Part shown: positions 10,647-33,545 of the stretch, in pieces
Layout of the letters: the number at the start of each line of letters is the position of its first letter
Numbering within the stretch: the stretch's first letter is position 1
Assembly: GCA_045631065.1 (NCBI GenBank)
Contig: JAZQUA010000037.1
Location: 1 to 38,686, forward strand
Direction of reading: 5' to 3'
Origin: Candidatus Enterousia sp.
GTDB lineage: Bacteria; Pseudomonadota; Alphaproteobacteria; Rs-D84
Length of the DNA: 38,686 nt
Translations under genes and position numbers: made by a program
Notes under the pieces: model-generated
The model's database searches: none
Told to the model about the DNA's origin: nothing
Seen by the model: the letters and a program-made list of their open reading frames with translations, nothing else

Positions 10647-11264
10647 ATGTTAAAAAGATTCATATTTTTCATATGTGGTATATTTATTTCAATGGCTTCG
10701 TATGCGGCTGTTGATACAGCATTGGTTACAAAAGCGGAAAAATATTTAAATTCGATAACAGGGCTTGCTGGCGATTTTATTCAGACATCTAATGGTCGTC
10801 AAGAAAAGGGTGTGTTTTCTATGTTGCGTCCAGGAAGGGTCAGATTAGATTATGATAATATGCCGGTTCAGTTGATTTCTGATGGTCAAGATTTGTATTT
10901 CTTTGACAAGTCTTTGGATCAAATTACAACAGTACCTTTGACCAGTACGCCTGCGGGAATATTGGTCAGAAAAAATATAGATTTAAAAAATGCAGATATC
11001 AGTGTTGTTGAAACAAGTGACAATAAAAATACTTTTTCATTAAAACTGAATTTGCGTGGCCAAGAAGGTTTGGGACATATGACGGTTGTTTTTGATAAAA
11101 GCCCGGTTAAGTTAAATTCTTGGTCTGTGGTTGATGCAACTGGGGCCAAGACAGATGTTGCTTTTCATGGTTTGTCGGAAAAAACAAAATTTGCCAAAGA
11201 TTTCTTTCAAATATCACGACATAAAACAATTAACACCAGTGGTGGTGACGATTTCTATGATTAA
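10647..11264 (+). CDS. lolA: LolA-like outer-membrane lipoprotein carrier protein
   Basis: Signal peptide (ASYA-AV). GLAGDFIQTS...GVFSMLRPGRVRLDY...LISDGQDLYFFD matches the LolA pattern. Confidence 0.7.
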   Translation: MLKRFIFFICGIFISMASYAAVDTALVTKAEKYLNSITGLAGDFIQTSNGRQEKGVFSMLRPGRVRLDYDNMPVQLISDGQDLYFFDKSLDQITTVPLTSTPAGILVRKNIDLKNADISVVETSDNKNTFSLKLNLRGQEGLGHMTVVFDKSPVKLNSWSVVDATGAKTDVAFHGLSEKTKFAKDFFQISRHKTINTSGGDDFYD

Positions 11265-17043: not shown

Positions 17044-18591
17044 ATGTATAAACAATTTTTATTTTTACTGTGTTCGTTTGTGCCGTTTTATAGTGTTTTG
17101 GCAGAAACTTTTTATATGGATATAAAAGGAGAAAATAAAAGTTTTGCAGAAGATGTTTTTGTCGCAGAAAATATCCCTGTTGTTTTTGAAAATGTATTTA
17201 TAACGGATACTTTATCGGTTGAAAATCATGGTGTGTTCTCGGTAAATTCAATGAATGTTTGTGCCAGGTGTGATTTGTTTTTTGAAAACTTTAACACAAT
17301 CAATATTAACAGCGTTGATTTGAATGATGATTCCAGAATATTTCAAATTGTGTCAGATGTTAATAATATGAATCCAATTAATATTGGTGCTGAATATACA
17401 GTTTTGGTCGGTGGAAATAATGATTTTTCTTTGTCTGACATTGTTGATGTTGTATCTGGTTCTGGAAATATTGTGTTAGAAAATACAACGTTGCATATAA
17501 ATTCTGTGCCATTAAATACGTCTAAAAATATTGAAATTAAAGAAAACGTAAAATTCATAATCAGTGATATTGCTGATTTATATAATATCACATTGCTTGA
17601 TAATATTACAGGTGGCGCAACAGCGCGTTTTATATCAAATAATGATGATGTTATGTATGTAACGGTTGGAGAAATTGCAGATGGAAAACTGTTTATAAAA
17701 CATATTCGTGAAACAGATTATAATGTAATTTTTAATAATGATATGGGTGTGTTTTTAAATTCACTGCGTATGGATAATAAAAATAATAAACTGATGTATG
17801 CATTGGATTCTGCCACAGATAAAAATTCCTTGTATTCTGTTATGTCTAAATCAGTGTTGTTTAATCCTGATGTCTTAGTAAAACCATTACAGATAATTAA
17901 TAAAATAAATATGATGTCAATTGATAATGGTTTTGCAAATAGTGTGGATGTAAATGTGTTTGGTGTTATGTCTGATGATTTCTATACATATGGTTCTGAT
18001 ATAGGCTTGGCAAGTGTTATACAAAATAAATTTAAATTATCGCTGGGCGCGCAAATTGCAAATATAGAATATTCATCTGGTTTTAATGAATTTTCAGGTG
18101 TTGTTTATGGATTAAATTTGCAGGCTGCATATTTATTTAGTAATAAAATGTTTCTGCATATAGATTCTGGATTATCATTTGCACAATTTGATATCACGAA
18201 TGTTATGTACAACGATAAGATGATTTCTAAACCAAATTCATTATTTGGTTATGTGGTACTGGATACGGGTTATGAACTAAACTTCGATTCGTTTTCTGTT
18301 GTGCCTGTGGCAGGTATTGGTATGCAATTTTATGATTTAAATGGTATAAAATATTCTGATTTTGTTGGGCGTGTTGGTGGTGCTGTTGAATATAAATTTG
18401 CTGTTTCTGATTTAGAATATGTGTATGGCGTGTCTGTAATTGCAGACACAGATTCTTCATTGTCTTTATCCGGTAAAGTTGGGTTTATGTCGCCAACAGA
18501 TATGATTGGTGGATATGTTGAATTATCGACTATCCTTGTGGAAGACAGTGTGTCTTATAAAGCATCTGTTAATGCAAAAATCCTGTTCTGA
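17044..18591 (+). CDS. Autotransporter-like outer-membrane protein (Asn/Ile-rich passenger plus C-terminal beta-barrel)
   Basis: Signal peptide (FYSVLA-ET). The C-terminal ~250 aa have alternating hydrophobic beta-strand periodicity and end in KILF (terminal Phe). The gene looks visibly more AT-rich than its neighbours. Confidence 0.55.
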   Translation: MYKQFLFLLCSFVPFYSVLAETFYMDIKGENKSFAEDVFVAENIPVVFENVFITDTLSVENHGVFSVNSMNVCARCDLFFENFNTININSVDLNDDSRIFQIVSDVNNMNPINIGAEYTVLVGGNNDFSLSDIVDVVSGSGNIVLENTTLHINSVPLNTSKNIEIKENVKFIISDIADLYNITLLDNITGGATARFISNNDDVMYVTVGEIADGKLFIKHIRETDYNVIFNNDMGVFLNSLRMDNKNNKLMYALDSATDKNSLYSVMSKSVLFNPDVLVKPLQIINKINMMSIDNGFANSVDVNVFGVMSDDFYTYGSDIGLASVIQNKFKLSLGAQIANIEYSSGFNEFSGVVYGLNLQAAYLFSNKMFLHIDSGLSFAQFDITNVMYNDKMISKPNSLFGYVVLDTGYELNFDSFSVVPVAGIGMQFYDLNGIKYSDFVGRVGGAVEYKFAVSDLEYVYGVSVIADTDSSLSLSGKVGFMSPTDMIGGYVELSTILVEDSVSYKASVNAKILF

Positions 18592-22424: not shown

Positions 22425-23891
22425 TTATTTTCCCATAATTGTTGTTGGGCGGTTGTCAACAGATGCTGCTGATTCAATATGTTTTGCCAATTGCAGAACG
22501 CGCATATCTGCAAAACGTGGACCAACAACCTGCATTCCCAGTGGCAGACCGTTTTGTGCCAGACCGCATGGTACACTGCATGCAGGGATGCCTGCCAGAT
22601 TCATTGCAACTGTGAATAAATCCAATGCATAGAATTCCAATGGTGACAGTGATGCATCCAATGGCATCGCGGTACCTGCGGATGCAGGGCATACGATTAA
22701 GTCGCATTGTTCAAATGCAGAATTAAAGCTGTCTGCAATCATACGACGCACGCGTGCAGCCTGCATAAAATATACGTCATACGATTCGCTGGACAGTACC
22801 GCTGTGCCAATAATCATACGACGTTTTACTTCGTCGCCAAAGCCAGCAGCACGTGTTTTTTTGTATGTGTCATATATGTCTTTGCCTTCGACCCGCAGAC
22901 CGTAACGCATACCGTCATAACGTGCTAAATTCGAAGATGCTTCGGCTGGGGCGATAATATAGTAAGCGGCCAATGCATCCAAAATGTTTGGAATTGAAAC
23001 TTCAACAATTTCTGCGCCCATAGACTTTAAATCTGCAATACGTTTTTCAAATAATGATTTCATGTCATCTGATATTTCAACGTCTGCAAATTCTTTGATA
23101 ATACCAATACGTAGTTTTTTTCCGTTGCCCAAAATTGGTTCCAGTGATTTTGTGCAGTTAAAACCATTTGTTGCACTGGTTGAATCTTTTGGATCGTGAC
23201 CTGCCATACATGATAACATTAATGCTGCATCATCAACCGTACGTGTAATGGGTCCTGGTGTGTCCAAAGAAGATGCAAATGCAACACAGCCCCAACGTGA
23301 ACACAGACCGTATGTAGGTTTCATACCAACCATACCGGTAATTGCCGCAGGAAAACGAATTGAACCACCTGTGTCTGTGCCTGTTGCGCATAATGCCAAA
23401 CCGCCAGCAACTGCAGATGTTGAACCGCCAGATGAACCACCAGCAGTTAAATGTTTTTCCAACTGCCATGGATTGACAGGCGCACCAAAGAAACTGGTCT
23501 TGCTGAAAGTTCCCATCGCAAATTCGTCTAAATTTGCCTTGCCCAGTAATACAGTGCCAGAATCAATCAATTTTTGAGAAACAGTCGATTCGTATTCAGG
23601 TACAAAATTTTCCAGTATACGTGATGCAGCAGTTGTGCGAATGCCACGTGTTGCAAACAAGTCTTTCATTGCCATTGGAATCCCGTCCAGTGGTAATGCG
23701 TTGCCCGCTGCACGTCTGGCATCAGATGCAGCAGCGTCTGCCATGGCGCGTTCTGGGGTAACGGTAATATAGCAATTTAAATCAGCGCCGTATTGTTCAA
23801 TGCGGTTTAAGTATGCTTTTGTTAATTCAACAGACGTGATTTCACCACTGTTTAATTTTTCTAAGGCTTCGGTTATTGTTAGATTTATCAT
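22425..23891 (-). CDS. gatA: Glu-tRNA(Gln)/Asp-tRNA(Asn) amidotransferase subunit A
   Basis: Amidase signature GGSSGGS...GTDTGGSIR. The start is set at MINLTITEAL (23891). The track ORF extends 33 codons further upstream into the preceding gene. Confidence 0.95.
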   Translation of the reverse strand: MINLTITEALEKLNSGEITSVELTKAYLNRIEQYGADLNCYITVTPERAMADAAASDARRAAGNALPLDGIPMAMKDLFATRGIRTTAASRILENFVPEYESTVSQKLIDSGTVLLGKANLDEFAMGTFSKTSFFGAPVNPWQLEKHLTAGGSSGGSTSAVAGGLALCATGTDTGGSIRFPAAITGMVGMKPTYGLCSRWGCVAFASSLDTPGPITRTVDDAALMLSCMAGHDPKDSTSATNGFNCTKSLEPILGNGKKLRIGIIKEFADVEISDDMKSLFEKRIADLKSMGAEIVEVSIPNILDALAAYYIIAPAEASSNLARYDGMRYGLRVEGKDIYDTYKKTRAAGFGDEVKRRMIIGTAVLSSESYDVYFMQAARVRRMIADSFNSAFEQCDLIVCPASAGTAMPLDASLSPLEFYALDLFTVAMNLAGIPACSVPCGLAQNGLPLGMQVVGPRFADMRVLQLAKHIESAASVDNRPTTIMGK

Positions 23892-24304
23892 TTTTGCTTT
23901 CCGTAGTGTTGTGGGAACAATGCTGTGCCCAGTGTGTTTTTTATAAATTCGTCTTGGCATTTGCCGCCACGTAAATTGCGCGCGCAGCATTTTGCTTTTG
24001 CTAAATCATCATTTTTACATTTTGCACATTGTGGTTTATAGTCAGGAAAGAACATGCCGGTTATATTTAGATTGCCATGTTTTTGTCCATATGTTTTAAA
24101 TGGTTCAAAATTCACAATGTCTGTGTAACTTACTTGTAATGATTTAAGACACGCTTTTTTTGTAGAGCGGCTGTTTCTGAATTGTTCGATTAATTCAAGC
24201 GCTTTGCTTTGTGTAATGCAGCCAAGCTTGATTGTTTGTGGAAAATCATTATATTGCTCGTACACTAAAAAATTGACAGGAATATTGTTTGTTTTTTTAG
24301 ACAT
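23888..24304 (-). CDS. Uncharacterised Cys-rich 138-aa protein, paralogue of the next ORF
   Basis: GAGGAA Shine-Dalgarno sequence. The stop overlaps the gatA ATG (ATGA). C-terminus is CAKCKNDDLAKAKCCARNLRGGKCQDEFIKNTLGTALFPQHYGKQK. Confidence 0.6.
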   Translation of the reverse strand: MSKKTNNIPVNFLVYEQYNDFPQTIKLGCITQSKALELIEQFRNSRSTKKACLKSLQVSYTDIVNFEPFKTYGQKHGNLNITGMFFPDYKPQCAKCKNDDLAKAKCCARNLRGGKCQDEFIKNTLGTALFPQHYGKQK

Positions 24305-24316
24305 GATATTCCTCTG

Positions 24317-24715
24317 TTATTTTTGTTTTTCATTTGCATAGTGTTGTGGAAACAACACTGCGCCCACAGTTCTGCGGACGAATTCATCTTTGCATTTTCC
24401 GCATTGCAAATTATCAAAGCAACTTTGTGTTTTTTCATAAGTTGATTTATTAAAAACATTAAGGTTGGGTTGACATCTTAGCTTGTCAATATGCGCCATA
24501 CCATTAAGTGTTAATTCACTATGTGCACTGGTGTGTCTTGGTATGTTTAAAATGCTTGTTTGCATATTAACATTAAAACATTGTGCAACACACGTTGCCA
24601 ATTTAATATCTGTATTTTTTAACAGGCTTAATAATTCAACCACGTCATTTGCAGACACTTCCAACTTTAAATTAGTTAAGTATGGAATAATTATTCTTAT
24701 TCTTGAATCTTTCAT
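24317..24715 (-). CDS. Uncharacterised Cys-rich 132-aa protein, paralogue of the previous ORF
   Basis: The ATG lies 3 nt after the gatC stop. C-terminus is SCFDNLQCGKCKDEFVRRTVGAVLFPQHYANEKQK. Confidence 0.6.
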   Translation of the reverse strand: MKDSRIRIIIPYLTNLKLEVSANDVVELLSLLKNTDIKLATCVAQCFNVNMQTSILNIPRHTSAHSELTLNGMAHIDKLRCQPNLNVFNKSTYEKTQSCFDNLQCGKCKDEFVRRTVGAVLFPQHYANEKQK

Positions 24716-29513: not shown

Positions 29514-30056
29514 TTAATTGTTTTGTGTTGCCAACTGTTTTGCCTGGGCAAAGAATGTTAATGATTGACCCAGCAGGCCGTCTGTAAATGTTGCAGATAA
29601 TAAGCCATCTGGTTCTGTCGTTGTCAGGTGGTGTAAAAATGTGTCTGCACGATGCATATAGTTGTCGATGTTGCGTGCAACTTCGGAGTCCAGTTTTATG
29701 CAACGACGTAATTTTTCTAGTGTGAATGGATTCTTGGCATATTCGTCCATAATGCCCCCCAATGCACGCCACAGTGGGTGTTCAGGTGTGTTGCGTGGCA
29801 TGATATCGATTGCTGCCATGACAGGAATCAGACTTTGTAGTAAATCCTGATAAATCATTTCTGCGTTTTCTGTAACAGCATTTGTCGCAGATTTTGTTTT
29901 TAAAACAGATTGGATTTTTGAAATCAGGTTATACTGGTGTTCCAGTGTTTTTGTAATTCCCGCTATTTTTGTATTCATTGTGTGTGCGTACACTGCGATC
30001 CCAATTATTAATGCTAAAATTAATCCAAGCGCAATAAAAGTTATGATGTTTTGCAT
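29514..30056 (-). CDS. Hypothetical 180-aa protein with an N-terminal TM helix; first gene of the sufBC transcription unit
   Basis: AGGGG Shine-Dalgarno sequence. TM helix IITFIALGLILALIIGIAVYA, with a helical remainder and no recognised motif. Confidence 0.55.
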   Translation of the reverse strand: MQNIITFIALGLILALIIGIAVYAHTMNTKIAGITKTLEHQYNLISKIQSVLKTKSATNAVTENAEMIYQDLLQSLIPVMAAIDIMPRNTPEHPLWRALGGIMDEYAKNPFTLEKLRRCIKLDSEVARNIDNYMHRADTFLHHLTTTEPDGLLSATFTDGLLGQSLTFFAQAKQLATQNN

Positions 30057-30100: not shown

Positions 30101-30124
30101 TCTTTTTGCGATTCGTGCGATTTT

Positions 30125-30136
30125 ATATTCGAATAT
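30125..30136. promoter_or_regulatory. Perfect 12-bp palindrome ATATTCGAATAT in the divergent control region (candidate operator)
   Basis: Read directly from the sequence. It is preceded by the direct repeat GCGATT-CGT-GCGATT (30108-30122). Confidence 0.3.
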
Positions 30137-30159
30137 TTGTTTTTAGCCGTTTTTAGGTC

Positions 30160-30188
30160 TTGCACAGATTCGGTCAAATTGTTATAAT
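30160..30188 (+). promoter_or_regulatory. Sigma70-type promoter for the TcpQ-like/secretin pair
   Basis: TTGCAC (30160-30165), 17-nt spacer, TATAAT (30183-30188), about 44 nt upstream of the ATG at 30232. Confidence 0.5.
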
Positions 30189-30231
30189 AATAAACAATTA
30201 AAGGAATATTATAGGGAAAGGAAGTCTTAGT

Positions 30232-31161
30232 ATGTTTCGTAAAGTTTTGATTTTTGCAATGTTTGCAACTGCAGCAGGCTATTGCTTTGCTGCGGAAACT
30301 CTGCCTCAGGTTGTTACATCAGAAGTTTTTTATGAACAAGAAAAAGTTGTTGATGAAGGACAATGGCAACAGGTTGATACAACAACTTATGATGTCGTAG
30401 AAACGTATGAAACGTACAGGGAAATTCCTGCATGGCCGTTGGTGGGGTCTGATGCTGATGTCGAAGTTTCTTGTACAGGTGGTGTTGCGTCAAAGAAAAA
30501 GCAAAGTGATAATATTCGTATCGTATCCAAAATAGGCACAGATTTGGTGGTTGAAAATAATTTTAATTTGGGTGTTCGTGGCAATGAATGGTCTGGTGGT
30601 GCAAATATGTTGCATGGTACACAAATTCCAGTTGGATTTGCAGACGAATGTAATGATGAATCCGAAATGCCATTGTTGCATCGCGAAGTTTTGGAAGATG
30701 ATGGTGGTAATGTTTTGACTGTATCTCGCAGTGGACGCAAGAATTGTGGTAAATATGCAGATACTTATGATGCTTTTGCTGCAAAAATGGGAATGAAGGT
30801 TGAAAATGTAACCGAAGATACAACTGTTATAGAAGAAGAAACAGAAATAGAAGTTGCAGAAGTTGCAGAGTCTGCGGATGCCGAGGCGCCTGTTGTTATG
30901 ACAGATCAGGTTCGTTCGTGGGTTGTTGCAAATGGCCAGACATTACGTGAAGTTTTACAGAATTGGTGCAACAAAGAAGGCTGGGATTTGGTTTGGGCAA
31001 CATCTCGTGAATATCCAATAGAAGCAAGTGCTGTATTCAAAGGTCGTTTTGTTGATGTTGCATCTGCGTTGGTTCGTAACTTTGGACGTGCGACACCAAT
31101 TCCATATGCCAAGTTTTATAAAGGAAATCGTGTTTTGCTGATTACAACATCAGAAGAATAA
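30232..31161 (+). CDS. Secreted protein with a C-terminal TcpQ/PilL-like domain (candidate secretin partner)
   Basis: GGAAAGGAAG Shine-Dalgarno sequence and a signal peptide (AAGYCFA-AE). An acidic linker follows. The C-terminus WVVANGQTLREVLQNWCNKEGWDLVWATSREYPIEASAVFKGRFVDVASALVRNF...NRVLLITT matches my recollection of the TcpQ-type domain. Confidence 0.55.
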   Translation: MFRKVLIFAMFATAAGYCFAAETLPQVVTSEVFYEQEKVVDEGQWQQVDTTTYDVVETYETYREIPAWPLVGSDADVEVSCTGGVASKKKQSDNIRIVSKIGTDLVVENNFNLGVRGNEWSGGANMLHGTQIPVGFADECNDESEMPLLHREVLEDDGGNVLTVSRSGRKNCGKYADTYDAFAAKMGMKVENVTEDTTVIEEETEIEVAEVAESADAEAPVVMTDQVRSWVVANGQTLREVLQNWCNKEGWDLVWATSREYPIEASAVFKGRFVDVASALVRNFGRATPIPYAKFYKGNRVLLITTSEE

Positions 31162-31195
31162 TCATAAGTATCGTATGACGTAGGAGAATATAAAT

Positions 31196-32821
31196 ATGAT
31201 AAAGCCAATGAAAATCTTTGTAATGTGTGCAGTGTTGTTGGGATTGTCTGGTTGTGCAACCAAAGAATCTGCCAAGGTTGCTGCAACGGTTGATAATGAT
31301 TTTGTAAATGCATATGATGCGTTTGAAATGGCAAAAAATCCACGTGCCAAGGTTGCCAGTGGCGATACTGTTTCTATGTCTGATGGTGTTTGGTTGGGAA
31401 ACAAATCTGTTGTTTTAGAACATCGTAATAATTTGCCATCTATGTTTGAAACAGATACAGGTGTTACTATATTATTAAATGAACCTGTGTCGTTGCAGGT
31501 CTTGGCAAATGATATTTATTCTGTAACAGGAATTCCTGTAAAGATTGATGGGCAAATTTCCGCTGAAAAATTAAAAAAATTGGTTAATGTTGCATATACT
31601 GGAAAGTTGTCTGGTTTATTATCTCAGGTTGCAACAGATTTAGATTTATTGTGGTACTATGATAAGAATTCAATTGTTTTCTATGAAACAGAAACAAAAA
31701 CATTTACTTTGTATGCATTGGGAACCGAAGTTGCATATCAAACATCTGTATCAACAGACAATTCAAATGAAGTTTCATTGGAATCTACATTAAAAGAATG
31801 GGACGAAGTTGAAAGCGCTATTTCTTCAATTATTGGAAAAAGCGATAATGCAGACTTTACTGTATCACGCAGCTTGGGTACAATTACTGTAACTGCATCC
31901 CCATCTGTGTTGGCGCGTGTTGGTGAATATATAGAACGTCAAAATAAAAGATTGTCTCAACTGATAACTATTGATGTAAAGGTTTTGCAAGTAACAATTT
32001 CAAATGATTCTGCGTTTGGTTTGAATTTGGCAGCAGCGATTAATTCAACAGCCGGATTGAATATTGTTGCAAATCCAAAAAATAATCTTGCATCGACAGA
32101 GGCCAGTTCAATGAATATCGCGGTGTTGTCAAATGCAGTATCTGCATTGACGGGTGCAACTCATACCGAAGGTGGTGCAACTGTCGAAGGTGCATATACG
32201 CAAAATGATATTATGAACGGTTCGTTATCTGGTGCTGCGGGTTCAAATGCATTGATTCAATCTTTGGCAAAACAGGGTAAGGTATCATTGGTAACAAATG
32301 TTGGTGTTACAACACGTTCGAATCGTGTTGCACCGGTCAGCAATACACGCACCACAGGTTATATTAAACGTTTCGAATCAAGAAACTTTACAACTGTTGA
32401 ATCAAGTACGGTTGATCAAGACGATTTGGAAACAGGCTTTACAATGCAATTGTTGCCAAATGTATTGGAAAACGGCAAAATTTTGTTGTTGTTCCGTATG
32501 TCTGTTCGTGAATTGTTGCGTATGTCAACACAGACAATTGGCGAAGTAACATTGCAGTTGCCAGAAGTAGAAGAACGTAGCTTTATGCAAGAAGTTATTA
32601 TGGAATCAGGCCAAATGTTGGTTGTGTCCGGATTTGAAAAACAGAAAAGTCAAGATACACGTTATGGTTTGGGCGATCCTGACTTTATGGCATTGTCTGG
32701 TTCACGCGAATCTGCTGCAAGTCGTGAAGTTCTGGTTGTTATCTTGACACCACAGGTATTGATTAGTCCGATGGATACAGAAAGAACTATACAGCAGCAT
32801 TGGGGTGCCCCACTAAACTAA
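31196..32821 (+). CDS. Outer-membrane lipoprotein secretin (type IVb pilus TcpC/BfpB/PilN-like)
   Basis: AGGAG Shine-Dalgarno sequence and lipobox LSGC. C-terminal secretin domain: ITIDVKVLQVTISNDSAFGLNL ... FTMQLLPNVLENGKILLLFRMSV ... LQLPEVEERSFMQEVIMESGQMLVVSGF ... REVLVVILTPQVL. Confidence 0.8.
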   Translation: MIKPMKIFVMCAVLLGLSGCATKESAKVAATVDNDFVNAYDAFEMAKNPRAKVASGDTVSMSDGVWLGNKSVVLEHRNNLPSMFETDTGVTILLNEPVSLQVLANDIYSVTGIPVKIDGQISAEKLKKLVNVAYTGKLSGLLSQVATDLDLLWYYDKNSIVFYETETKTFTLYALGTEVAYQTSVSTDNSNEVSLESTLKEWDEVESAISSIIGKSDNADFTVSRSLGTITVTASPSVLARVGEYIERQNKRLSQLITIDVKVLQVTISNDSAFGLNLAAAINSTAGLNIVANPKNNLASTEASSMNIAVLSNAVSALTGATHTEGGATVEGAYTQNDIMNGSLSGAAGSNALIQSLAKQGKVSLVTNVGVTTRSNRVAPVSNTRTTGYIKRFESRNFTTVESSTVDQDDLETGFTMQLLPNVLENGKILLLFRMSVRELLRMSTQTIGEVTLQLPEVEERSFMQEVIMESGQMLVVSGFEKQKSQDTRYGLGDPDFMALSGSRESAASREVLVVILTPQVLISPMDTERTIQQHWGAPLN

Positions 32822-32850
32822 AAATAAATTATAATAATTCATCTAAAAAC

Positions 32851-32902
32851 AAATCGGGAATCTCATGTAGCGTTTGTACACTACGATTCCCGATTTTTTT
32901 TT
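32851..32902 (+). terminator. Long bulged hairpin plus T-run after the secretin gene (also copy 1 of the repeat array)
   Basis: Outer stem AAATCGGGAATC / GATTCCCGATTT. Inner stem GTAGCGT / ACACTAC with one mismatch. A run of T residues follows. Confidence 0.65.
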
Positions 32903-33076
32903 ATCTAAATCATTCTAATTTATTTTTCGCTAATCACGAACAAGTTGATGGTTCATGTAACTTTTGTACACTACGGTTTCGGGTTTGTGTGTATCTATAC
33001 TATTATCTTTAATTTTTTGCTAATCACGAGTGGGGTGCAGGCAATTTATGTAGTGTCAAGTACACTACATTGCCGG
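32851..33076. repeat. Tandem array of about 90-nt repeats (2.5-3 units) with a conserved core (C/T)ATGTA-N6-8-GTACACTAC
   Basis: GTACACTAC occurs at 32876, 32966 and 33060 (spacing 90 and 94 nt). GCTAATCACGA occurs at 32929 and 33019 (spacing 90 nt). The linker segments TATCTA...TTTTT(C)GCTAATCACGA align between units. Confidence 0.8.
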
Positions 33077-33079
33077 CAT

Positions 33080-33109
33080 AAAAAAATCCCCTTGCTGGGG
33101 AATTTTTTT
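33080..33109. terminator. Bidirectional terminator downstream of the minus-strand 145-aa ORF
   Basis: A7-TCCCC-TTGCT-GGGGA-A2-T7, abutting the stop at 33108-33110. Confidence 0.65.
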
Positions 33110-33545
33110 ATCTGGCTTTTATACTGTTTAATATTATCAGTCGCTTTTCAATTTCGTGTTGTAAATCACGACGTGTTGCATGATTTAAATGTTTTTTGTA
33201 ATCAGTTGTTTTGTATTGTGGAAAAATATATGTTTCTGCTGATGGGTATAATTGAACAACGGGTTTGTTTGTTTCTTTGTCCAGGTATTCAATAATTGTT
33301 GTCGCTATTTTTTCGCCCAGTTTATGTGTGTTTTCAATATGTCTTTGTGCCATTTCGTTGGCATAAGGATTTGGAAATTCTTTGGATTTAATCCAGCCTG
33401 TATTGGTTTCTTGTTTTTGACCGTTAATTGTTATTAAGGCCATTGGGGTAAATTTTTGATACGCAAACAAACCCATATCTATCATGCCGTTAAATGCGAT
33501 GGTATATGTATTTTTCTTCTTTTTGCTGGGTTTCATATTATTCAT
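33108..33545 (-). CDS. Hypothetical 145-aa protein
   Basis: The start is set at MNNMKPSKKKK (33545) because a strong promoter and the parE terminator lie inside the longer track ORF. No recognised motif. Confidence 0.5.
   Translation of the reverse strand: MNNMKPSKKKKNTYTIAFNGMIDMGLFAYQKFTPMALITINGQKQETNTGWIKSKEFPNPYANEMAQRHIENTHKLGEKIATTIIEYLDKETNKPVVQLYPSAETYIFPQYKTTDYKKHLNHATRRDLQHEIEKRLIILNSIKAR

Follow-up and report, generated by a model that had tools for sequence, protein, structure and literature searches.

The TcpQ-like protein and lipoprotein secretin of Candidatus Enterousia as the probable outer-membrane part of a split type IVb pilus-like operon

What is an outer-membrane secretin gene for when it lies among housekeeping genes, with no pilus machinery beside it? 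The question is raised by a 38,686-nt stretch of Candidatus Enterousia sp. (contig JAZQUA010000037.1, assembly GCA_045631065.1; hereafter the window), in which a gene for a TcpQ-like protein is followed by one for a lipoprotein secretin. Enterousia belongs to the order Rs-D84 and has genomes of about 0.75-1.0 Mb in which most biosynthetic pathways are missing; a partner-dependent lifestyle has been proposed for it (PMC12306168). A sequence-only reading had taken the two genes for an orphan pair. We conclude, with a probability of about 85%, that their products form the outer-membrane secretin complex of a type IVb pilus-like machine of the R64 PilL-R/bundle-forming pilus (BFP)/toxin-coregulated pilus (TCP) class, which is chromosomal and vertically inherited and has its operon split in two. 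The pair seems orphaned because the window spans only 38 kb.

The two co-oriented open reading frames (ORFs) lie on the forward strand and are separated by 34 nt. ORF1 (30232-31161, 309 aa) is a TcpQ/BfpG-type partner gene and ORF2 (31196-32821, 541 aa) a PilN/BfpB-type lipoprotein secretin gene; both assignments combine the ORF call with Pfam and PDB matches, to which NCBIfam adds a third match for ORF2. A purine-rich ribosome-binding site precedes each. Searches with hidden Markov models (HMMs) placed both domains above their Pfam cut-offs. The TcpQ domain (PF10671; cut-off 27 bits) covers aa 228-305 of ORF1 (E 6.8e-18, 65 bits), and the pore-forming secretin domain (PF00263; cut-off 27.5 bits) covers aa 357-522 of ORF2, at 32264-32761 (E 6.8e-13, 49 bits). 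The initial description of the pair, a secreted 309-aa TcpQ-type protein followed 34 nt later by a 541-aa secretin with an LSGC lipobox, is borne out by these matches and by the best NCBIfam model, that of the PilN family.

ORF2 was then placed among the secretin classes. Its lipobox, L17-S-G-C20 (31244-31255), was read from the sequence; Cys20, the predicted lipidated residue, is invariant in Enterousia, three outgroups and one plasmid PilN, and the residue at +2 is Ala, consistent with sorting to the outer membrane. The best NCBIfam model was TIGR02520, the PilN-family type IVB secretin (233.9 bits), followed by MshL (97 bits, cut-off 250) and SctC (27 bits, cut-off 238), both under their cut-offs; no CpaC/RcpA, GspD or PilQ match was found in NCBIfam. 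A search against all PDB sequences matched a single entry, BfpB of enteropathogenic Escherichia coli (EPEC; 9u5s_A, E 1.6e-43). The homology runs through aa 31-522 in three collinear HMMER segments covering the LG, N0, N3 and secretin regions. Plasmid PilN proteins are 26-28% identical to ORF2 over 96% of its length. By these comparisons ORF2 is a predicted lipoprotein pore of the BfpB/PilN class.

The homology with BfpB extends to the segment that receives the partner. In EPEC, a clamp of 17 BfpG copies sits around the periplasmic N3 ring, held by the pairing of beta-strands with a strand-linker-strand segment of the LG domain, and the BfpB-BfpG interaction is needed for pilus biogenesis (PMC12531336). 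The predicted partner-binding region of ORF2 (31358-31411, aa 55-72, SGDTVSMSDGVWLGNKSV) has as its counterpart in the alignment SSDMVSKTDSIYIGNSSF, where the LG domain of BfpB binds BfpG, the segment aligned to the BfpG-binding region itself being SGDTVSMSDGVWLGN. Trp66 and Leu67, which form an aromatic-aliphatic linker, are invariant in all six aligned secretins, which include Enterousia, three outgroup lineages and one plasmid PilN. Two further features of the secretin were observed: an insertion of about 45 aa, specific to Enterousia, that lies between N3 and the pore domain (32084-32215, aa ~297-340), and a C-terminal tail, SPMDTERTIQQHWGAPLN (SPxDxE....WGAPL; 32765-32818, aa 524-541), that is conserved in alphaproteobacterial secretins and absent from plasmid PilN.

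ORF1 carries the complementary half of this interface at its C terminus. Residues 226-309 match the BfpG chain of the same PDB entry (9u5s_R, E 8.7e-16), and a profile of the TcpQ-like family found nothing in the PDB besides BfpG; BfpG and TcpQ are both N0-like proteins (PMC12531336). Against NCBIfam, conjugative PilL models included, ORF1 gave no family at E <= 0.1. On homology, its C-terminal TcpQ (N0-like) domain (30904-31158, aa 225-309) is a predicted secretin-binding ring subunit of the BfpG/TcpQ type, and it would bind and stabilise the cognate secretin. The remainder of the protein is larger than expected, since TcpQ/BfpG partners are usually small single-domain proteins of about 110-150 aa; the partners of the outgroups measure 223-387 aa. 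A Sec-type signal peptide was read from the sequence (MFRKVLIFAMFATAAGYCFA followed by AE; aa 1-20, cleavage around CFA/AE). In the alignment of 64 sequences it is followed by a short conserved motif (aa 25-36), a variable acidic linker, a conserved middle domain (30427-30786, aa ~66-185) and a hypervariable acidic linker with large indels (aa ~186-224). The N-terminal 200 aa had been called acidic and unrecognisable. Acidic they are (42 D/E vs 15 K/R), and neither they nor the middle domain matched anything in Pfam, NCBIfam or the PDB. They do have conserved features, however: over 50 positions of the middle domain are invariant, the genus keeps Cys140 and Cys172 without exception, and the domain is still alignable in one outgroup, L104 (49% identity over aa 98-309). 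AlphaFold2 modelled only the TcpQ domain when given the whole protein (predicted local distance difference test score, pLDDT, 64-84; remainder below 50), and the middle domain run on its own also stayed below 50.

If the pair belongs to a pilus machine, where is the rest? Relatives in which the genes are still together provide the template. Outside the genus cluster, the nearest secretin (P0242, 42% identity) lies in a contiguous cassette in housekeeping context (loci L009/L010), with the order TcpQ, secretin, PAP_PilO, PilP-like protein, T2SSE ATPase and T2SSF platform. The same six contiguous genes are present in outgroups L099, L100 and L104, and across the outgroups with a contiguous cassette the secretin is 36-65% identical to that of the window. 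L104 is the closest: its secretin shows 65% identity, the middle domain recurs in its partner of 305 aa, and its cassette sits between rpsD and gyrB. This gene order is that of plasmid type IVb (R64-type) operons such as that of pMsip01.

The ATPase of L009, used as a query, retrieved from gut Alphaproteobacteria a numerous family of proteins about 52% identical to it, and in Enterousia this family marks a second locus, always of the order DUF374-lpxK-lpxC-small lipoprotein-PilO-PilP-ATPase-platform...gyrB and always free of TcpQ and secretin genes. The domains found there were PAP_PilO, a sub-threshold PilP family, an ATPase closest to GspE/PilB and T2SSF; the ATPase has 541 aa and a tetracysteine motif, and its best model is GspE. 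We scanned GTDB species genomes with a chimeric query whose secretin and ATPase halves were taken from different subclades. The best 80 loci comprised 54 pair loci and 26 ATPase loci, and both sets include metagenome-assembled genomes (MAGs) named Candidatus Enterousia; among these 80 no assembly was common to the two sets, a consequence of the limit of 80 loci and of the different subclades of the two query halves. No secretin lay within 10 kb of the second locus in any of the 26 species representatives sampled, nor did a PilO or ATPase gene lie within 10 kb of the pair in 53 of the 54 pair loci. When secretin and ATPase proteins were grouped by proximity of their GenBank accessions, none of 10 clusters came from the same assembly.

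Two contigs nevertheless hold both groups of genes. Contig JAZRIB010000007.1 of another Ca. Enterousia sp. (L075) carries the pair and, about 9 kb downstream on the same strand, the lpxK-lpxC-lipoprotein-PilO group, which extends as far as the retrieved sequence goes; the group was detected by local tblastn searches of the flanking regions. A second chimeric scan, made on metagenome contigs, yielded Ga0310690_10000071 (223,596 bp), on which about 127 kb separate the two loci, both on one strand; the pair there has the synteny of the window (gatA, sufC, sufB, 180-aa gene, parE), and the second locus is complete, from lpxK-lpxC-lipoprotein through PilO-PilP-ATPase-platform to gyrB. Comparison of these gene orders indicates that in Enterousia the ancestral cassette was cut between the secretin gene (pilN) and pilO, that the gyrB right flank stayed with the motor half, and that each half has a promoter of its own. 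A pilus locus without a secretin, elsewhere in the genome, is what the sequence-only reading had named as fatal to its orphan claim, and such a locus exists at the level of the genus; with both halves on each of two single contigs, its proposals of a stand-alone channel, a remnant or a co-opted module are not supported. A split operon is the ordinary explanation of the apparent orphan.

Several observations were made around the motor half. A small lipoprotein gene (108-143 aa) always lies between lpxC and pilO in Enterousia (L011 7491-7931; L097 7523-8116). It was considered as a PilM and showed no similarity; it has its own terminator, after which a promoter, TTTGCCA-N17-TGTTATAAT, serves pilO, and for these reasons we do not count it in the system. 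The PilO locus of Enterousia has a virB4 gene about 5.5 kb upstream. In L099, trbC and traG/virD4 are directly upstream of the cassette and comEC is two genes downstream; in L075, dprA lies between the half-loci. Together these type IV secretion genes, comEC and dprA occupy L011 61-2484, L106 1-1832, L099 6612-9215 and 17496-19133, and L075 12362-13384.

Each protein of the pair has more than 1000 homologues, all from uncultured gut or rumen 'Alphaproteobacteria' MAGs, and the order sufB, 180-aa gene, TcpQ-like gene, secretin gene, small ORF, parE is kept on contigs of up to hundreds of kb. Assembly GCA_036308225.1 encodes a secretin identical to that of the window, and the pair is also present on two near-complete contigs, ERZ1026780.1-NODE-1 (935,024 bp) and OIXQ01000001.1 (851,330 bp). 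Identity medians were computed over 54 species representatives with the window as reference; since these species were the best secretin matches, the secretin figure may be slightly favoured. The whole secretin has a median identity of 90.3% and its pore domain (residues 341-541) one of 94.5%, against 90.1% for GatB, 87.2% for GatA, 82.5% for SufB and 94.2% for ParE. In the partner, the TcpQ domain reaches 91.7% and the N-terminal part 66.5%. These values point to strong purifying constraint on the pair. The strong conservation, together with the kept promoter, argues that the pair is neither a remnant nor a co-opted channel.

The promoter (30160-30188, forward strand) consists of TTGCAC (-35), a 17-nt spacer and TATAAT (-10) with a TG before the -10, and the same TTGCAC-17-TATAAT was listed by a consensus scan. 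Comparison of 55 distinct orthologous upstream regions shows variable flanks around a 30-nt block, CTTGCACAGATTCGGTCAAATTG.TATAATA, in which every position, those of the spacer among them, is at least 90% conserved. Chance resemblance to the consensus does not account for such conservation, and the conserved spacer suggests an overlapping operator. Downstream, an intrinsic terminator (32855-32902, forward strand) is formed by the stem CGGGAATC/GATTCCCG (32855-32892) with an internally paired loop, followed by nine T. The hairpin, found in an inverted-repeat search, begins 34 nt past the secretin stop codon, and its loop is longer than a simple scanner permits. The intergenic region 32822-33110 folds better than its shuffles (z = -6.2). 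The pair is transcribed as its own unit, as had been proposed from its promoter and terminator.

Both intergenic regions contain further elements. A second conserved block, GATTCGTGCGATTTTAT, lies at 30110-30126 and has the hexamer GATTCG in common with the promoter spacer (30167-30172); block and spacer look like a putative pair of operator sites for a regulator. The GATTCG-bearing blocks (30110-30189) are in the divergent intergenic region between the pair and the 180-aa gene. Beyond the secretin gene, a hairpin element is repeated at 32863-32939 and 32953-33029 (78% identical), a third related hairpin with the same GTAG..CACTAC core is found at about 33040-33075, and a bidirectional terminator (33078-33111) follows the repeats. 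An Rfam search of the region gave sub-threshold chance matches only and no family for the hairpin repeats.

A number of results weigh against a split type IVb pilus-like machine. The ORF2 score of 233.9 bits is below the TIGR02520 equivalog cut-off of 287.65 bits, which is why the Prokaryotic Genome Annotation Pipeline (PGAP) names the secretin 'hypothetical'. The link between the two loci rests on congeneric genomes, two of them with both loci on one contig, and no regulatory motif common to the pair promoter and the PilO locus was found. The conserved middle domain of ORF1 is without counterpart in BfpG or TcpQ. Finally, a motif scan covering the window and about 180 related loci recovered its positive controls, the plasmid pilin and PilV, but detected neither a pilin or minor pilin nor a prepilin peptidase. 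Searches of the related loci by tblastn with plasmid pilin, PilM and PilV were likewise negative, as were their precomputed Pfam lists for pilin and prepilin peptidase. Downstream of the platform gene, the outgroups with an unsplit cassette have unrelated housekeeping genes.

A working model for the split machine can be drawn from its homologues. The 541-aa protein would be lipidated at Cys20, carried to the outer membrane by the Lol pathway, of which lolA is encoded in the window, and multimerise there into a gated secretin channel. The 309-aa protein would be exported by Sec, and its N0-like TcpQ domain would bind the conserved strand-linker-strand segment just after the lipid anchor of the secretin, giving a roughly 1:1 ring that encircles the periplasmic N3 ring like a hoop, after the pattern of BfpG on BfpB. 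PilO, PilP, the GspE/PilB-type ATPase and the T2SSF platform from the lpxC-gyrB locus would align with the secretin complex, and this motor half would assemble a pilin fibre or pseudopilus that passes through the channel. The physical complex, its stoichiometry and the coupling of the two loci are in this model predictions from sequence homology. By analogy with BFP, TCP and the R64 thin pilus, the most likely output would be adhesion to a partner cell or to host mucus; transport of DNA or protein is a possible alternative in a seemingly partner-dependent organism.

Whether the machine makes a true pilus is the question on which the strongest competing explanation turns. The split machine could be real and yet, with a short pseudopilus in place of an extended surface pilus, work in type II-like secretion or in DNA uptake. 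The ATPase is a single GspE/PilB-like one whose best model is GspE, and no retraction ATPase, recognisable major pilin or PilV adhesin was found near either locus. Other type IVb systems (TCP, CFA/III) also secrete soluble proteins. The position of comEC near the L099 cassette and of dprA between the L075 half-loci would fit such a role, as would the lack of nucleotide and amino-acid biosynthesis in Enterousia (PMC12306168). Yet each adjacency is confined to one lineage, the characterised homologues (BFP, TCP, R64 thin pilus) all make pili, and pilin genes may be short, divergent and located elsewhere. We regard a pseudopilus apparatus as unlikely, although it has the best claim among the alternatives. 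A little less probable again is a more radical reading, in which the six genes of Enterousia and related reduced alphaproteobacteria would make up a minimal type IVb-derived envelope machine with no canonical pilin or prepilin peptidase, its partner protein equipped with a new conserved periplasmic domain, and would serve the partner-dependent lifestyle, through attachment to another cell or uptake of its DNA or metabolites, in place of the classical roles of pili. Were this so, the promoter block, spacer included, would mark a dedicated regulator.

Explanations that do without a machine fare much worse. A stand-alone outer-membrane channel, separate from any pilus machine and co-opted for export or uptake, could account for a 38.7-kb window without pilus genes, for a pair with its own promoter and terminator, for the failure to find a pilin in any locus searched and for the extra conserved domain on the partner. 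The same genus, however, has a PilO-PilP-ATPase-platform locus that lacks a secretin, two contigs hold both loci, the six genes are contiguous in outgroups, and the partner-binding segment and TcpQ domain are kept as in working type IVb systems; this reading is close to refuted. Slightly further down the scale is a decaying remnant of the thin-pilus (PilL-PilV) locus of a conjugative plasmid or integrative and conjugative element (ICE). Its appeal comes from the closest annotated relatives, which are PilN proteins of conjugative plasmids, and from the type IV secretion genes (traG, trbC, virB4) near the cassette or locus in L099, L011 and L106, which hint at an ancient origin in a conjugative element. 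Decay is contradicted by two intact reading frames, by a secretin as conserved as GatB in 54 species, by a promoter conserved across the genus, and by fixed synteny and native composition with neither an integrase nor a tRNA junction. Enterousia genomes, at below 1 Mb, have high coding density and no accumulation of pseudogenes (PMC12306168), so that useless genes would be expected to be lost from them.

Annotation of the orthologues is inconsistent, PGAP giving 'hypothetical protein' for the secretin and 'Flp pilus assembly complex ATPase component TadA' for the ATPase, and the Joint Genome Institute (JGI) giving 'Flp pilus assembly secretin CpaC' for some secretins. A Tad/Flp (type IVc) pilus secretin, the origin that the CpaC and TadA labels imply, is the least credible explanation of all, because the secretin has no CpaC/RcpA match and prefers the PilN and then the MshL model, is a lipoprotein with a TcpQ partner, and has its counterpart in a second locus with PAP_PilO, a PilP-family protein, a single T2SSF platform and an ATPase that best fits GspE/PilB; judged by its families, the gene content is type IVb (PilN/PilO/PilP) and not Tad.

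The split type IVb machine is of interest for the biology of the lineage. A genome below 1 Mb that has dispensed with most biosynthesis retains it at a level of conservation equal to that of a tRNA-amidotransferase, and it becomes a leading candidate for the means by which these uncultured gut bacteria attach to or feed on partners, comparable to the type IV pili of Saccharibacteria. A genomic survey of Rs-D84/Enterousia did not report pili for the lineage (PMC12306168). The main value of the split-operon result is the correction of the orphan-secretin reading, and the pair adds a new member to the type IVb secretin/partner family, from a lineage without earlier pilus reports. The architecture of the partner is modestly new, its extra conserved domain being a small variation on the BfpG/TcpQ theme.

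Pfam analysis of all large ORFs in the window returned housekeeping genes only: thrS, dksA, trx, sufS/E, a penicillin-binding protein gene, recJ, lolA (10647-11264), tatC, gatCAB, ruvX, sufBC, the gene of a ParE-type subunit, dnaJ, pgsA and uvrC. It returned no pilin, prepilin peptidase, ATPase or platform in the 38.7 kb, in agreement with the first description of the window as free of pilus genes and of the flanks as suf and parE. The pair is bordered by sufB and by the gene of a 659-aa ParE-type topoisomerase subunit, its G+C content is 38-40% against 37.6% for the window, and no tRNA or integrase gene was found at its borders.

Three other sets of genes in the window were noted. A 180-aa protein with one N-terminal transmembrane helix is encoded divergently from the pair (29514-30056, reverse strand). 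It has no family match, yet its gene neighbours the pair in 52 of the 54 species (median identity 79%) and is still adjacent in the rearranged L075; it was ruled out as a member of the cassette, being absent from the outgroups with an unsplit cassette. Two paralogous small ORFs of 138 and 132 aa lie between gatC and gatA (23888-24304 and 24317-24715, reverse strand) and share a Cys-rich C-terminal motif, C..NL.(C)GKC.DEF....G..LFPQHY; in related strains the insert is one ORF (L006) or none (L007, L008). A 515-aa secreted protein without a Pfam match (17044-18591, forward strand) has a C-terminal region resembling that of an outer-membrane beta-barrel in its final ...AKILF, and may be an autotransporter-type surface protein.

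Among known systems, the closest to the Enterousia pair is EPEC BfpB-BfpG (PDB 9u5s). The two systems share a lipoprotein secretin built of LG, N0, N3 and secretin regions, homologous along its whole length, and a small N0-like periplasmic partner to which the C-terminal domain of ORF1 is homologous, and in both the partner-binding region has a hydrophobic linker, Trp66-Leu67 here and Tyr47-Ile48 in BfpB. They differ in the partner, since BfpG is a single domain of about 114 aa whereas the Enterousia protein has 309 aa with a middle domain and two acidic linkers, and in the secretin, which in Enterousia has the lineage-specific insertion of about 45 aa and the conserved C-terminal tail. The Enterousia pair is, moreover, chromosomal, in housekeeping context and apart from the rest of its machine, with no bfp-like pilin, peptidase or retraction ATPase near it. 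The Vibrio cholerae TcpQ-TcpC pair has the same order, with the partner gene first and the lipoprotein secretin second, and a partner with a TcpQ domain; there, TcpQ is needed for the secretin complex. The tcpQ and tcpC genes, however, lie inside a complete tcp operon on a pathogenicity island, whereas the Enterousia pair is a unit of its own, far from the motor genes, in a non-pathogenic gut symbiont with a reduced genome. In gene order the nearest parallel is the thin-pilus operon of R64/IncI1 plasmids and ICEs (as in Methylovorus pMsip01), in which TcpQ-family protein, PilN, PilO, PilP, ATPase and T2SSF follow one another as in the unsplit alphaproteobacterial cassette; the pMsip01 proteins are about 27% (PilN) and 32-36% (ATPase) identical to their counterparts. 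Unlike R64-type operons, the alphaproteobacterial cassettes have no pilS, pilM, pilT/U or pilV homologues and no shufflon after the platform gene, and ORF1 gives no match to the PilL model. The Enterousia system further differs from these operons in that it is not on a mobile element and that its cassette is cut between pilN and pilO.

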